From IMG/VR virus record IMGVR_UViG_2706794663_000006: a stretch of 4,629 bases of DNA. One strand, 5' to 3'. This DNA is from a virus. Lineage: Duplodnaviria; Heunggongvirae; Uroviricota; Caudoviricetes. Of the stretch, positions 1 through 4,629 are shown piece by piece. Below the pieces are notes generated by a model. The model was not told where the DNA came from, searched no databases, and was given only the letters and a program-made list of their open reading frames with translations. A program made the position numbers and the translations under genes. Positions within the stretch are counted from its first letter, which is position 1. Each line of letters begins with the position of its first letter.

Positions 1-28
1 AGGGACAGCTGATAGAAACAGAAGCCAC
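1..28 (-). CDS. insA: IS1 InsA, N-terminal 9 codons only (partial, runs off window)
   Basis: GTG start at 28..26 on the minus strand, preceded by GAGG. Codons GTG GCT TCT GTT TCT ATC AGC TGT CCC give (M)ASVSISCP, the known InsA N-terminus. Position corresponds to IS1 nt 56, the canonical insA start. Confidence 0.7.
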
Positions 29-83
29 TGGAGCACCTCAAAAACACCATCATACACTAAATCAGTAAGTTGGCAGCATCACC
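1..83 (-). mobile_element. IS1 insertion sequence, left terminus (partial; element continues beyond window start)
   Basis: Reverse complement of 61..83 is GGTGATGCTGCCAACTTACTGAT, which I recognise as the IS1 terminal inverted repeat. The minus strand continues TTAGTGTATGATGGTGTTTTTGAGGTGCTCCAGTGGCTTCTGTTTCTATCAGCTGTCCCT, matching the known IS1 left end through the insA start. Identification is from memory of the IS1 sequence, not a search. Confidence 0.85.
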
Positions 84-260
84 GTTTTAACGTTACTAAT
101 AAATCGTGAAACAATCTCCTCATTTGTTAGTATTTTCGCCTGAGCACAGCAAGAGGTTAATATTGCAACCGTCATTAAAAATGGCTTTATCACAAAACAA
201 ACTCCATTGTTAGCATGTTACGCGATAATTTTGCCTCATCTTTCACCACAAAAAAAGAAC

Positions 261-2210
261 TCACCTTTTAAATGGAGAATACCCAACATCATGGGTGATT
301 TTCATAAAGGGATCGCCTGTTTTCGGCAAATCGATAACGCGCATTCCAGGCGGCGCGTTGTCAAACGTCACCTTAAGTTCGCTGCGGGTTGCCGGTGAAG
401 ATGCAAGGCTTAACAGCTGATTCCTTTCCAGTGATACATTCGGGGTGTAGCGTTTATCGGGAGATAAATACCCATCACCACGTGGCATCTGCCATCCGGT
501 CATGTCATAGACAAAATCATGGAACTGTTTGCCCCACTCGTCGAACTTATCATTCAGACCAAATCCACTGTTCAGTGCATCAGCCACAAAATTTTTAACA
601 AGCCAGGGATGTGCTTTTTCAAACTCCTGCGCCATCATGCCCAGTTCAAGCAATCCACCAATCAGACTGATCTTTCCGAGGCCCTTTAATTTCAGCCCTG
701 TTTTTCCTGCCGCCGTTGTCCATTGATTCTGGGCGACTGTTGCCGCACGAATACTTGCCACCGCCTTCACACCAATATACAGGGCAGAAACCGTTGCTAT
801 TGTTTTTACTGCCTGTTCCCATCCCCCCATTGCTCTGACAACCTGATCAACCTCCTGCCAGACTTTTTTCACAACCGGACCGACCGTTTCCCAGTTATCA
901 ATTATGAGATATGCACCACCGACGAGAAGCGCAATTAATCCCTTTGCCGGCGTCATATTCATCACGCTACCCATGATTTTTGTTATGCGTGTCAATGTGC
1001 CAATCGCCACGCCCATCGTCAGTAATGCCGCACCAGTTTTCGCGATGGTTTTTACGACCTCAGGATTTTCTCTGACAAACGTGCGCACTTCTTCCAGAAA
1101 AGGCTTCATCTCTTTTATGCCTTCATTGAGTGAAGGCAGGAAGGTTTCCCCCAGCGTGGAAGAAATCGCATTGATCTGGTTCTGCAGCAGCAACAACTGA
1201 TTTTCTGTCGTCGCGGCACGGGCGGCATATTCTTTCTGCATTGAGCCGCCATACTGCTGCGCATCCGCCACACGATTAAAGTTGGTTCGCAACAAATCCA
1301 GATTCGTGAGCAGCGGCGCAATGGCCCCCAGGGATTCCTTCCCGAACAGCGCTTTCAGCACAGCAGCCTGTTTTTCTTTCGGCACTTTTGCCAGAGAATC
1401 CAGTACGTGCAGCATGGCCCCGCGGGCGTCTTTCTGCATATCCGCCGCCAGTTTTTTCGGGCTAATGCGCAACGAGCGGAGCACTTTTTTCTGCGATTTG
1501 GTGGCAGAATCCCTCGCTGTCAGCGACAACATAAAATTCTTTATCCCCGTCGCAGCAATTTCTGACTCCACCCCCATTCCGGCAATGGTTGCCCCCATTG
1601 CGGCAATCTCTCCGGAGGCCACACCCGCAACACTGCCTAAAGGGCCAATACGGGTCACAACATCAGAAATCTTTTTCGCACTTGCAGGACCGGTATTACC
1701 AAGATAGTTAATCTTATCCGCAAGCCCTGCCACCTCTCCCTGTGTCAGTTTAAAGGCAGTGCGCCACTGCGCCATCATCTGACCGGATTCTTCTGCCGTG
1801 GTGTCAAAGGCCACGCCCATCTTCACGGCATCGTCAGTAAACTGCATCAGCTCGTCACGGGCGATACCAGCCTGACCACCCGCCGCCACAATTTCGGCGA
1901 TACCTTCCGCCGACATGGGCAGTTCTGTTGACAGGTCGCGCACCTGCTCCGTCATTGCCTTAAACGCTTCCGGCGTATCCAGACCATCCACCACTTTCCG
2001 GACATCCGCCATTTTTGATTCAAGGGCAATGGCAGATTTGACCGGGAGCGCCAGCGCCCCCAGTACTGCGGTTCCGGCACCCGCTGCGCCCAGTAACAGG
2101 CTGGCAAACTCCTTTTTAAAACCTTTCAGCTGGCGCTGCATTCCCTTCAGCGGTGCCGATACCTTATCCACGGCAGTGATGATCGCCTTCAGCTGAAAAC
2201 TGTCAGCCAT
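261..2210 (-). CDS. Phage tail tape measure protein (649 aa)
   Basis: Long minus-strand ORF directly downstream of the tube and chaperone genes. The protein is Ala/Gly/Leu/Lys-rich and predicted helical, with a Gly/Ala-rich hydrophobic N-terminal segment (LLLGAAGAGTAVLGALALPV) and a central hydrophobic block (TGAALLTMGVAIGTLT..., LIALLVGGAYLII...), typical of tape measure proteins. GAGGAG Shine-Dalgarno sits 7 nt upstream of the ATG at 2210..2208. Coordinates include the TGA stop at 261..263. Confidence 0.9.
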   Translation of the reverse strand: MADSFQLKAIITAVDKVSAPLKGMQRQLKGFKKEFASLLLGAAGAGTAVLGALALPVKSAIALESKMADVRKVVDGLDTPEAFKAMTEQVRDLSTELPMSAEGIAEIVAAGGQAGIARDELMQFTDDAVKMGVAFDTTAEESGQMMAQWRTAFKLTQGEVAGLADKINYLGNTGPASAKKISDVVTRIGPLGSVAGVASGEIAAMGATIAGMGVESEIAATGIKNFMLSLTARDSATKSQKKVLRSLRISPKKLAADMQKDARGAMLHVLDSLAKVPKEKQAAVLKALFGKESLGAIAPLLTNLDLLRTNFNRVADAQQYGGSMQKEYAARAATTENQLLLLQNQINAISSTLGETFLPSLNEGIKEMKPFLEEVRTFVRENPEVVKTIAKTGAALLTMGVAIGTLTRITKIMGSVMNMTPAKGLIALLVGGAYLIIDNWETVGPVVKKVWQEVDQVVRAMGGWEQAVKTIATVSALYIGVKAVASIRAATVAQNQWTTAAGKTGLKLKGLGKISLIGGLLELGMMAQEFEKAHPWLVKNFVADALNSGFGLNDKFDEWGKQFHDFVYDMTGWQMPRGDGYLSPDKRYTPNVSLERNQLLSLASSPATRSELKVTFDNAPPGMRVIDLPKTGDPFMKITHDVGYSPFKR

Positions 2211-2289
2211 GCTTCATCTCCTCGTTAATGCGGACGGCCTCGGCTTCCAGTTCTGTAAACTGCGAAACAGCCCCCCGTCGCAGCTCCAG
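2203..2289 (-). CDS. 3' end of tail assembly chaperone or its frameshift-extended form (C-terminal 28 codons visible; upstream part masked by N-run)
   Basis: Of the three minus frames open after the gap, this one reads LELRRGAVSQFTELEAEAVRINEEMKHG* with E. coli-like codon choice (CTG, GAG, GCC, CGC, AAC). The other two frames use rare AGG/AGA/TTA codons and give implausible peptides. Its TGA stop (2205..2203) overlaps the tape measure start (ATGGCTGA), as expected for the G/GT-type chaperone product. Confidence 0.5.
   Translation of the reverse strand: MELRRGAVSQFTELEAEAVRINEEMKHG
2218..2223 (-). promoter_or_regulatory. Shine-Dalgarno (GAGGAG) for tape measure gene
   Basis: Minus strand reads GAGGAG, then a 7-nt spacer (ATGAAGC), then ATG at 2210..2208. 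Confidence 0.6.
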
Positions 2290-2290
2290 T

Positions 2291-2562
2291 NNNNNNNNNN
2301 NNNNNNNNNNNNNNNNNNNNNNNNNNNNNNNNNNNNNNNNNNNNNNNNNNNNNNNNNNNNNNNNNNNNNNNNNNNNNNNNNNNNNNNNNNNNNNNNNNNN
2401 NNNNNNNNNNNNNNNNNNNNNNNNNNNNNNNNNNNNNNNNNNNNNNNNNNNNNNNNNNNNNNNNNNNNNNNNNNNNNNNNNNNNNNNNNNNNNNNNNNNN
2501 NNNNNNNNNNNNNNNNNNNNNNNNNNNNNNNNNNNNNNNNNNNNNNNNNNNNNNNNNNNNNN
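2291..2562. other. Run of 272 N (assembly gap or masked sequence) inside the tail assembly chaperone region
   Basis: Uninterrupted n characters from 2291 to 2562. Flanked on both sides by minus-strand coding sequence. Confidence 0.99.
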
Positions 2563-2660
2563 TCGTCATACGTGGGCTCGCGCAACTCCAGCACATGCAG
2601 CATTTCGTTATGCGCTGTCACCGGTTTTTTTAAAACTATTTCTGTAACGTTCATTGCCAT
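2563..2660 (-). CDS. Tail assembly chaperone, 5' portion (32 codons visible: MAMNVTEIVLKKPVTAHNEMLHVLELREPTYD...; remainder masked)
   Basis: ATG at 2660..2658 overlaps the tube stop as TAATG. GGGAGGG Shine-Dalgarno lies 8 nt upstream. Position between tube and tape measure is the conserved location of the tail assembly chaperone (lambda G/GT, P2 E/E+E' analogues). Confidence 0.6.
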
Positions 2661-3016
2661 TACTGATACCCTCCCTCTTCGCCGTGGAATTCAAGATCTG
2701 CCGTGCCTTCTTCGGCATTATGATTAGCCTCTCCGTGCAGCCATGCCGCCGAAAGCACATACACCATGCCGTTTGCCAGCTCAGCGGTAATCGTCATCTG
2801 GTCTGAGGTGGTAATTTTGTCGACCGGAAAGTTTTTGGGCACTTTAAACGTGCCCTTAACGTAAGGTGACCGCCAGGTCTCCTTGTAATCCACATCCCCT
2901 GCCATGCCGACGATGTCATCCCGGACATTGGTGTTCATCGGCACTTCAATGCCACCTGTCAGCGATAACTGCTGACCATCCACTTTAAAAAAACAGGTTC
3001 CGGCGATCTTTGCCAT
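2660..3016 (-). CDS. Phage contractile tail tube protein (118 aa)
   Basis: Small ORF immediately after the sheath gene and before the chaperone and tape measure. Size and position fit Mu-type tail tube proteins. Start ATG 3016..3014 overlaps the sheath stop (TAATG); GAGGAG lies 8 nt upstream. Confidence 0.8.
   Translation of the reverse strand: MAKIAGTCFFKVDGQQLSLTGGIEVPMNTNVRDDIVGMAGDVDYKETWRSPYVKGTFKVPKNFPVDKITTSDQMTITAELANGMVYVLSAAWLHGEANHNAEEGTADLEFHGEEGGYQ
2669..2675 (-). promoter_or_regulatory. Shine-Dalgarno (GGGAGGG) for chaperone gene
   Basis: Minus strand reads GGGAGGG, then an 8-nt spacer, then ATG at 2660..2658. The motif lies inside the 3' end of the tube gene. Confidence 0.55.
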
Positions 3017-4512
3017 TATGCTGACTCCTCTGAATACTGAAGACGGAACTGGTTAACCACCGCAAAGACACGTAACTGATTAACATAATCCGGCGGGAAC
3101 AGCGTATTCAGTCGGTTCGGGTTATCTGCATCACGCTCAACTATCAGATACTGTTTAAACAGATCGTAATTTTCCACAATACCGGCACGCTCCATCTGAC
3201 GATATGTCGCCAGAAGTTCCCCTTTGATAACGGCAGGAGTGACAATCGCCTGCCCCGGACCAAAACGGGTACCATCATTTGCCAGCTTGTGACGTCCGTA
3301 CTTGCTTGTGATGACCGATTTCAGTTTGCGAAGAACATATGCACTGGTATGCAGAGTTTCACTGTCCAGATAGCTGTTGTCTGCCACGCCATACGCATTC
3401 TTTTTGTAGGTGGTTACGGAACGCTGGATCTGCAACGTGCCGCCTTCCACATAAGCCGTCGCCACGCCGTGAGATAAAAGGGTCTGCTGCTCTGTCATGA
3501 TGAATCGCTTACCTTTCGGTGCCGGAAGCATCCCCACCAGCTCCCCCGTCTGTGTCGGACGGGCAGGATCATTCCGGATAAATACCGCTTCACGGGCAAG
3601 GCGACTGGCAACCAGTTCATCGACAGGCGACTGGGTTTCTTTTTCGTAACCGGCAAGCGTGATATGTTGCTGATTATGCATATCTCCGGCACCAACCAGC
3701 TCTGACAGCGTTCCCAGTTTTGCGGTATAGCCATGCCCGTATAACTGGCGCGCATAACTCCAGCGACCGCTGCTGTCATTCATTTCGGTCATCATCATAT
3801 TGATGGAGGCGGCATCGTTGAACGGCAGACCGATAAAGTCGAATGCCTCATCGCCCATAGCAGCAACAGCGGCGGTAAGATCAGGCGCTCCGCTACCGGC
3901 AGCACCGACTTCCGTCACCACCCGAAGCCCTGCTGGCAGAATCTCACCACCACCAGAACCATAATAATTCAGACAGACCGGTAACTCATTACCATACAGC
4001 CCCTTATGACGGGCAGTCAGCGTCACCACACCTGCATCAGATGACGCCGTAAACGGCAGGGTGATAACCCCGTTTACCGCTTCCTTAATCGCGGTGGCAA
4101 CCGCAGTGGCATCATCGCCATTCACCACAGGCACCTGTACACGGGAGCGCCCGACATACAGACTCAGGGTGCCGCTTTCCTCTGCTTCTCCGGCAACCGT
4201 CACCCTGACCGTCGCCGCCGCCCCTCTGGCTTCCGGTACTGCAATAACATACAGTTCACCGAAAGGATCTGTCTGACGGTAGACTTCCACCATACGCGCC
4301 AGCTGGCTCCCCGCCCCACAAATCTGGCGGGCATAATCTGCCGATGGCATCAGCACCAGGCTGTTAACCTCAATGGCTGCATCGTTGCTGGCATGCCCGA
4401 TCAGTAATGCAGGCGCGCTGGTCACCGCTGTATTTGCCGCAGAATTGTTCATCTCGGCGTAGAACAACGGCACCAGCGTATTCGACGGAACAGTATTAAA
4501 ACTTATCGTCAT
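3016..4512 (-). CDS. Phage contractile tail sheath protein (498 aa)
   Basis: Roughly 500-aa ORF immediately upstream of the tube gene in the conserved sheath-tube-chaperone-tape measure order. Size fits Mu/SfV-type sheath proteins rather than the shorter P2 FI type. ATG at 4512..4510 is the first in-frame start (in-frame stops at 4521 and 4527 upstream). Confidence 0.8.
   Translation of the reverse strand: MTISFNTVPSNTLVPLFYAEMNNSAANTAVTSAPALLIGHASNDAAIEVNSLVLMPSADYARQICGAGSQLARMVEVYRQTDPFGELYVIAVPEARGAAATVRVTVAGEAEESGTLSLYVGRSRVQVPVVNGDDATAVATAIKEAVNGVITLPFTASSDAGVVTLTARHKGLYGNELPVCLNYYGSGGGEILPAGLRVVTEVGAAGSGAPDLTAAVAAMGDEAFDFIGLPFNDAASINMMMTEMNDSSGRWSYARQLYGHGYTAKLGTLSELVGAGDMHNQQHITLAGYEKETQSPVDELVASRLAREAVFIRNDPARPTQTGELVGMLPAPKGKRFIMTEQQTLLSHGVATAYVEGGTLQIQRSVTTYKKNAYGVADNSYLDSETLHTSAYVLRKLKSVITSKYGRHKLANDGTRFGPGQAIVTPAVIKGELLATYRQMERAGIVENYDLFKQYLIVERDADNPNRLNTLFPPDYVNQLRVFAVVNQFRLQYSEESA
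3025..3030 (-). promoter_or_regulatory. Shine-Dalgarno (GAGGAG) for tail tube gene
   Basis: Minus strand reads GAGGAG, then an 8-nt spacer (TCAGCATA), then ATG at 3016..3014. The motif lies inside the last codons of the sheath gene. Confidence 0.55.
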
Positions 4513-4522
4513 GATTTTTTAG

Positions 4523-4530
4523 CCTTATCC
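4523..4530 (-). promoter_or_regulatory. Shine-Dalgarno-like purine tract (GGATAAGG) for sheath gene
   Basis: Minus strand reads CAAGGATAAGGCTAAAAAATC then ATG. AAGG lies about 10 nt upstream of the start. Confidence 0.4.
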
Positions 4531-4574
4531 TTGAGGTGTACTGGCAATAGCGGACACTACCATTTGTTCTTTTT

Positions 4575-4629
4575 TTAAGCAGCCATCTGATGATATTTTT
4601 CCCTGAAGGCTGCCGGGGAGATATTCCCC
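4575..4629 (-). CDS. Possible 3' end of the gene upstream of the sheath (partial; only about 17 codons, ...GNISPAAFREKYHQMAA*)
   Basis: One minus frame is open from the window edge to a TAA at 4577..4575, leaving a 62-nt gap before the sheath start. The other frames give less protein-like peptides. Too short to confirm. Confidence 0.25.
   Translation of the reverse strand, partial: GNISPAAFREKYHQMAA

Follow-up and report, generated by a model that had tools for sequence, protein, structure and literature searches.

Genes and insertion sequence ends in the window

The window, by which we mean the whole stretch of 4629 nt analysed here, holds a block of contractile-tail genes that is bounded by the end of an IS1 element on one side and the end of an IS600 element on the other (Table 1). 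All recognizable genes are on the minus strand, in the order sheath, tube, tail assembly chaperone and tape measure protein (TMP), and in sister loci Mu gp43–48-like baseplate genes follow downstream. The original prediction of a Mu-like contractile tail is well supported both by the Pfam matches and by identity with phiP27 (NC_003356), an Stx2e phage with an HK97-type head and a Mu-like contractile tail. Positions 270–4531 of the window are 96.3% identical to phiP27 genes L44–L47 (sheath, tube, tail protein and tape measure), which stand in the same order. Phages SfV, SfII and SfI match the sheath–tube part only, at about 77%. In database records the exact TMP is named as a tape measure protein of Shigella sonnei or Shigella.

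Table 1. Features of the window (coordinates from its first letter) and, in the last row, of one related prophage locus
Feature	Position	Strand	Basis and remarks
IS1, first 83 nt	1..83	-	83/83 identical to K-12 IS1A and to the IS1 of locus L003; window edge lies inside the element
Truncated gene with features of a moron	62..193	-	GTG start at 193; 160 aa CDS annotated in loci L001 and L002
Target-site duplication, one copy	84..92		gttttaacg on the plus strand, CGTTAAAAC in IS1 orientation
Spacer from TMP stop to start of truncated gene, 67 nt	194..260	-	Read off the sequence
Tape measure protein (TMP), 649 aa, intact	261..2210	-	PF10145, E=1.4e-44
Tail assembly chaperone, start at 2660	2291..2660	-	Mostly under the N-run 2291–2562; end at ~2295 inferred from L003
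Tail tube, 118 aa	2660..3016	-	PF10618, E=1.4e-33
Contractile tail sheath, 498 aa, intact	3016..4512	-	PF04984, PF17482, PF17481
DUF2635 gene, last 19 nt; remainder deleted	4513..4531	-	Matches to L001, L002 and phiP27 end at 4531
IS600 right end (IRR and 3' end of orfB; IS3 family)	4532..4629	-	98–99% identity to annotated 'IS3-like element IS600 family transposase' copies; window ends inside the element
ipaH pseudogene / ISEc60 insertions of L001	4094-5735, 19039-20229, 24752-25942 of L001

The chaperone gene is the one tail gene of the window that is largely hidden by masking. Its counterpart in locus L003 (AGRD01000060.1, positions 7564–7899) encodes 111 aa and has a weak match to PF10109. 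Positions 7806–7989 of L003, which correspond to masked sequence of the window together with 2211–2290, hold the chaperone gene with a run of seven Ts at 7827–7833, and the −1 frame stays open between 7806 and a stop codon that overlaps the start of the TMP gene. To judge by sequence, this is the layout usual for a programmed −1 frameshift that would give a longer chaperone. The N-run itself measures 272 nt, against 242 nt between the same flanks in all 11 of the related loci that hold both; the excess of 30 nt preserves the frame and represents either masking that changed the length or a real insertion of 30 nt.

At the other edge of the window, the reverse complement of positions 1–83 is GGTGATGCTGCCAACTTACTGATTTAGTGTATGATGGTGTTTTTGAGGTGCTCCAGTGGCTTCTGTTTCTATCAGCTGTCCCT, and the K-12 sequence that it matches in full is nt 1–83 of the IS1A copy of Escherichia coli annotated in RefSeq (L005). 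The IRL occupies window positions 83 to 61 at the very tip of the element and begins GGTGATGCTGCCAACTTACTGAT. The GTG start codon of insA lies at positions 28 to 26 (IS1 nt 56); from it the codons read MASVSISCP, so that nine InsA codons are contained in the window, in a frame that runs on to a 91 aa InsA in L003. Matches in complete E. coli genomes carry the annotation 'IS1-like element IS1A family transposase', and the IS1 portion of the window was matched in 4976 of 5426 such genomes. An exact match of 83 nt to a known element excludes chance. The 83 nt are identical to IS1 of the IS1A/IS1E consensus type known from E. coli K-12 and Shigella, and the full element of L003 differs from the K-12 IS1A copy by three substitutions in 768 bp and is otherwise alike. 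The boundary of the element is fixed at 83/84, since uninterrupted relatives among complete E. coli genomes align from position 84 of the window and never earlier. With the TMP stop codon at 261–263, the distance from the TMP gene to the IS1 tip is exactly 177 bp (84–260). Thus the original prediction had correctly recognized the left end of IS1 with its insA start on the minus strand, and had correctly placed the tip 177 bp past the tape measure gene.

The presence of IS1 explains why the contig stops where it does. In the indexed collection the exact TMP is found in 2042 blocks, and for 1875 of these the longest contig carrying it measures just 2–5 kb, which indicates that the locus, as in the window, usually comes out of assembly as a short piece between IS1 and IS600. 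Short-read assemblies tend to break at repeats, and the window is a fragment of that kind.

In sister loci, a complete IS1 between 9 bp repeats, with baseplate genes beyond it

As the window stops at nt 83 of IS1, the far side of the element was read from other assemblies that have the same junction. An exact look-up of the 43 aa ORF that runs across the junction found two NCBI assemblies, L003 and L004 (AKNC01000076.1); the AKNC record belongs to S. sonnei 3226-85 (PMC5447701). An exact look-up of the TMP gave ten further places, all on multi-megabase chromosome records. Over the 4357 unmasked bases of the window, both IS ends included, there is no mismatch to L006, L007, L008 or L013, which are multi-megabase chromosomes, and a single mismatch to each of L003, L009, L011 and L014.

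In L003 the IS1 occupies positions 10111–10878, is 768 bp long and is 99.6% identical to K-12 IS1A. It contains both IRL and IRR, the 91 aa insA, a 167 aa insB frame and the A6C slippery motif for −1 frameshifting, TTAAAAAAC, in agreement with the defining anatomy of IS1 (PMC12428005). The insA and insB ORFs and the ends of the element are intact in the sister loci. The sequence CGTTAAAAC flanks the L003 element on both sides (10102–10110 and 10879–10887), and the same succession of junction, exactly 768 bp, CGTTAAAAC and the remainder of the interrupted ORF is found in L003, L006–L009 and L011–L014. At the empty sites of L001 and L010, CGTTAAAAC is present as a single copy. Aligned to L001 and L002, both of which have an empty site, the flanks of the L003 element share 9 bp, and zero bases are missing. 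Beyond the element come the remainder of the interrupted ORF and then the DNA_circ_N, GpP-like, Mu Gp45, GP46, Baseplate_J, Mu Gp48 and tail-fibre genes. A full 768 bp IS1 with insA and insB beyond position 1 of the window, as the original prediction envisaged, is therefore seen in L003 and in eight chromosomes, and the predicted 9 bp direct repeat is present at its far end.

The original prediction offered two readings of this end of the window, either a simple insertion or an IS1-mediated event that had truncated the prophage. By the second of these, an adjacent deletion or inversion mediated by IS1 took the baseplate and fibre genes away or moved them elsewhere, so that only a remnant reaching from sheath to TMP stayed in place. 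Such an event may be entertained for several reasons: the window ends inside IS1, with the far side unseen in its own assembly; Shigella genomes rearrange between IS copies, and in L010 phage terminase DNA takes the place of bamD to the left of IS4; and a deletion associated with an IS is indeed present at the opposite end of the window, next to IS600. An adjacent deletion would, however, be marked by lost target DNA and by the lack of a direct repeat, whereas at this site the flanks overlap by 9 bp, the repeat is present and no bases are missing relative to the empty-site relatives. Nine other assemblies with the junction have the 768 bp IS1, the second 9 bp repeat and the downstream tail genes (L004, with its tandem arrangement, stands apart), and four assemblies agree with the window at all of its unmasked bases. 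A matching duplication with baseplate genes beyond the element, which the original prediction had itself set against truncation, is what was found, together with the DNA-circularization and fibre genes, and on these grounds the truncation reading fails. IS1-mediated deletion was rejected for this end of the window, given the 9 bp overlap of the flanks and the presence of the downstream tail genes, and we regard a deletion or inversion in the window's own genome as highly improbable. The evidence favours the other reading offered, that of a simple insertion, for which the duplication, the lack of lost bases and the tail genes beyond the element all speak.

The junction could also, in principle, be an assembly artefact, an IS1 end misjoined to the contig. 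The contig is bounded by two high-copy repeats, where assemblers err, and the tandem IS1 of L004 is odd. Against this, the same junction is found base for base in at least ten independent assemblies, multi-megabase chromosome records among them, and it comes with a proper 9 bp duplication; a chimeric contig end was rejected for both of these reasons, and we consider the likelihood of an artefact to be practically nil.

In S. sonnei 3226-85 (L004, positions 4881–6424) there are two IS1 elements head to tail with 8 bp (TACATCGG) between them and the CGTTAAAAC repeats outside the pair. This pair is either a real tandem or an assembly artefact. To judge by it, the locus is structurally variable.

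An exact search of GTDB species-representative genomes with the junction (window positions 64–108) found no match, probably as a result of Shigella being merged into the species E. coli there, and among complete E. coli genomes the junction was likewise absent, only empty-site relatives being found. Both results are expected if the source of the DNA is Shigella, and the window probably originates from Shigella, with S. sonnei as the most likely species.

A complete 768 bp IS1 was inserted into codon 37 of a gene of 160 codons, with duplication of 9 bp and without loss of flanking DNA. From the established behaviour of the element, the InsAB' transposase would have made staggered cuts in GTTTTAACG, at a distance of 9 bp from each other, and repair would then have produced the second copy of those 9 bp. 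The IS1 is oriented in the same direction as the tail operon. As identical closed chromosomes continue in this way past IS1, the genome from which the window derives would be expected to do so too, and we predict a far junction there of the form IRR-CGTTAAAAC-ATCTGCAGAT, with the boundary falling between ...GGAGTCATTACC and CGTTAAAACATCTGCAGAT. IS1 insertions in the gal and lac operons are classically polar, and polarity of the IS1 described here would block read-through into the downstream baseplate genes.

The interrupted accessory gene

The original prediction had regarded the target of IS1 as an AT-rich spacer and the insertion as intergenic. This part of it does not stand, as the site lies inside an annotated, conserved ORF of 160 aa. 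Positions 84–193 of the window represent the first 36.7 codons (110 nt) of this ORF, which IS1 cut after codon 37. The fusion ORF (62–193) that results encodes 43 aa, consisting of 37 native residues, MIKPFLMTVAILTSCCAQAKILTNEEIVSRFISNVKT, followed by the IS1-encoded residues VMLPTY and a stop codon inside the IRL; the product of the gene would accordingly be shortened to 37+6 residues. The best relatives with an empty site are L001 (FDAARGOS_944, 99.8% identical) and L002 (AST215, 97%), and in both (at 14628–15110 in L001) the intact 160 aa CDS is annotated between the TMP and DNA-circularization genes. The original prediction had also stated that in phages of this kind the tape measure gene directly precedes the DNA-circularization gene. 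That holds for phiP27, but not for the lineage of the window, in which the 160-codon gene lies between the two.

The distribution and composition of the gene set it apart from the tail genes around it. It is absent from phiP27 and from the prophage of ATCC 43886, where the DNA-circularization gene follows 15 nt after the TMP gene; at the position of this 15 nt gap the window lineage carries an AT-rich cassette of ~0.55 kb, and it is this cassette that is the target of IS1. Among complete E. coli genomes, the segment was aligned through in 11 of the 24 best-ranked relatives. The GC content of the gene is 34–37%, compared with 52% for the TMP gene and 52–58% for neighbouring tail genes. A terminator-like hairpin with a T-run is located directly 3' of the ORF (L001 14622–14600, minus strand), and a simple scan upstream of the gene for a sigma-70 consensus promoter found none. 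The N terminus of the predicted product, MIKPFLMTVAILTSCCAQAK, reads by eye as a putative signal peptide with either an LTSC lipobox or an AQA cleavage site. On the grounds of distinct GC content, variable presence at a fixed position, a terminator-like hairpin and a small product of exported appearance, the 160-codon gene has the features of a moron, presumably acquired horizontally and with a product that may be exported or lipoprotein-like. It resembles known phage morons in its lower GC content, in being present or absent at one site among close relatives and in having a terminator-like hairpin with a T-run directly after the ORF, and differs from them in that no promoter of its own was found by the consensus scan.

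The intact protein matches phrog_5586 (E=1e-88), a PHROGs family of unknown function, and gave no match in Pfam or PADLOC. The nine clusters that make up its small family come from Shigella, E. coli and Yersinia. When the intact 160 aa protein was modelled with AlphaFold2 on an alignment of eight sequences, the mean pLDDT was 40.8, which is too poor for use. Beyond correct annotation, the significance of the insertion is small, and what interest the locus has lies in this small, exported-looking protein.

Decay of the prophage and the youth of the IS1 insertion

The IS600 at the other end of the window differs from the IS1 in what it has cost the prophage. In L003 the IS600 is 1263 bp long (4430–5692), with TG...CA termini; GAC stands on one side of it and AGG on the other, and thus it has no target duplication. 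It joins part of the prohead protease gene to the final 19 nt of the DUF2635 gene, which in intact relatives precedes the sheath gene. The ~3.5 kb that it replaces covers the remainder of the protease gene, the genes for major capsid, connector, head closure and tail terminator, and the DUF2635 gene apart from those 19 nt. The IS-associated deletion is therefore located at the IS600 end of the window, not at its IS1 end. A second IS1 (L003 15286–16052) lies the other way round within the gp46/baseplate J region, which it splits, and has a 9 bp duplication of its own, GGGGGCGCA, a GC-rich target as against the AT-rich one in the moron. Further out, in most genomes IS4 links the protease fragment to the chromosomal genes bamD-rluD-yfiH-clpB, and no portal, terminase, lysis or early genes were found at the locus joined in this way. 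A complete phiP27-like gene set (capsid, connector, terminator, portal, terminase, lysis and integrase) was not found.

These findings bear on the simple-insertion reading of the original prediction taken literally, by which the prophage would be otherwise intact and inducible and IS1 would lie in an AT-rich spacer that codes for nothing. The insertion is indeed a simple one with a target duplication, and the sheath, tube and TMP ORFs are intact in the window. The target, however, is within an annotated and conserved 160 aa ORF, the capsid, connector and terminator genes were lost with the ~3.5 kb at IS600, a further IS1 interrupts baseplate J, and the adjacent IS4 in most genomes joins the remnant to bamD, with no portal, terminase, lysis or early genes. 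We therefore give almost no credence to an intact prophage. The prophage is instead a decayed phiP27-like remnant, IS-riddled by comparison with phiP27 itself, and was non-functional before this IS1 arrived; the tail genes of the window belong to a dead prophage remnant and not to an inducible phage or a tailocin. As the prophage was already defective, the insertion would have been selectively neutral. Taking the evidence together, we consider it very probable that the window comes from a decayed phiP27-like prophage, of which it is a piece with an IS at either end, and that the IS1 end is explained by a simple insertion of IS1 into the AT-rich moron.

The order of events can be deduced from L010 (CP180280.1). 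This genome has an identical TMP and shares the IS4, the IS600 junction and the second IS1, yet its moron site is empty and the 160 aa ORF is intact (12018–12500). The most parsimonious reading is that IS1 entered the moron after all the others. To the left of IS4 in L010, phage HNH and small-terminase genes and another IS1 are found in place of bamD, which suggests an IS-mediated rearrangement that differs between genomes.

The chromosomes of S. sonnei carry a median of 286 IS insertions each, with IS1 as the top contributor, and five IS types, IS1 and IS600 among them, dominate this burden, at sites that vary from strain to strain (Hawkey et al., 2020; PMC7373316). The occupied, empty and IS5-containing states of the site described here fit that picture of IS expansion and prophage decay (PMC7373316), and the locus can be taken as an example of the process. 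The insertion of IS1 is an ordinary event, routine in S. sonnei genomes, and is already annotated in public genomes. Within Shigella, the three states of the site could be of use for marking lineages.

The state with IS5 is found in L015 (CP022672.1, positions 12085–13280), which has an identical TMP and the shared scaffold. Here IS5 follows ...AATACTAA at codon 23 of the same ORF, and with it goes a deletion of 448 bp that removes the remainder of the ORF and the terminator and reaches the start of the DNA-circularization gene. In this genome the moron was inactivated independently. It is possible to speculate that repeated knockout of the gene, by IS1 at codon 37 and by IS5 at codon 23, reflects selection in Shigella against an envelope protein encoded by the prophage, in the manner of an antivirulence gene, but we think this unlikely. 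An alternative is that both IS prefer AT-rich DNA, which at this site is probably bound by H-NS.

In L001 (NZ_CP065613.1, labelled E. coli FDAARGOS_944), an ipaH effector pseudogene adjoins the prophage, and ISEc60 insertions are present in the sheath and portal genes, indicating that the same prophage has decayed there by a different route.
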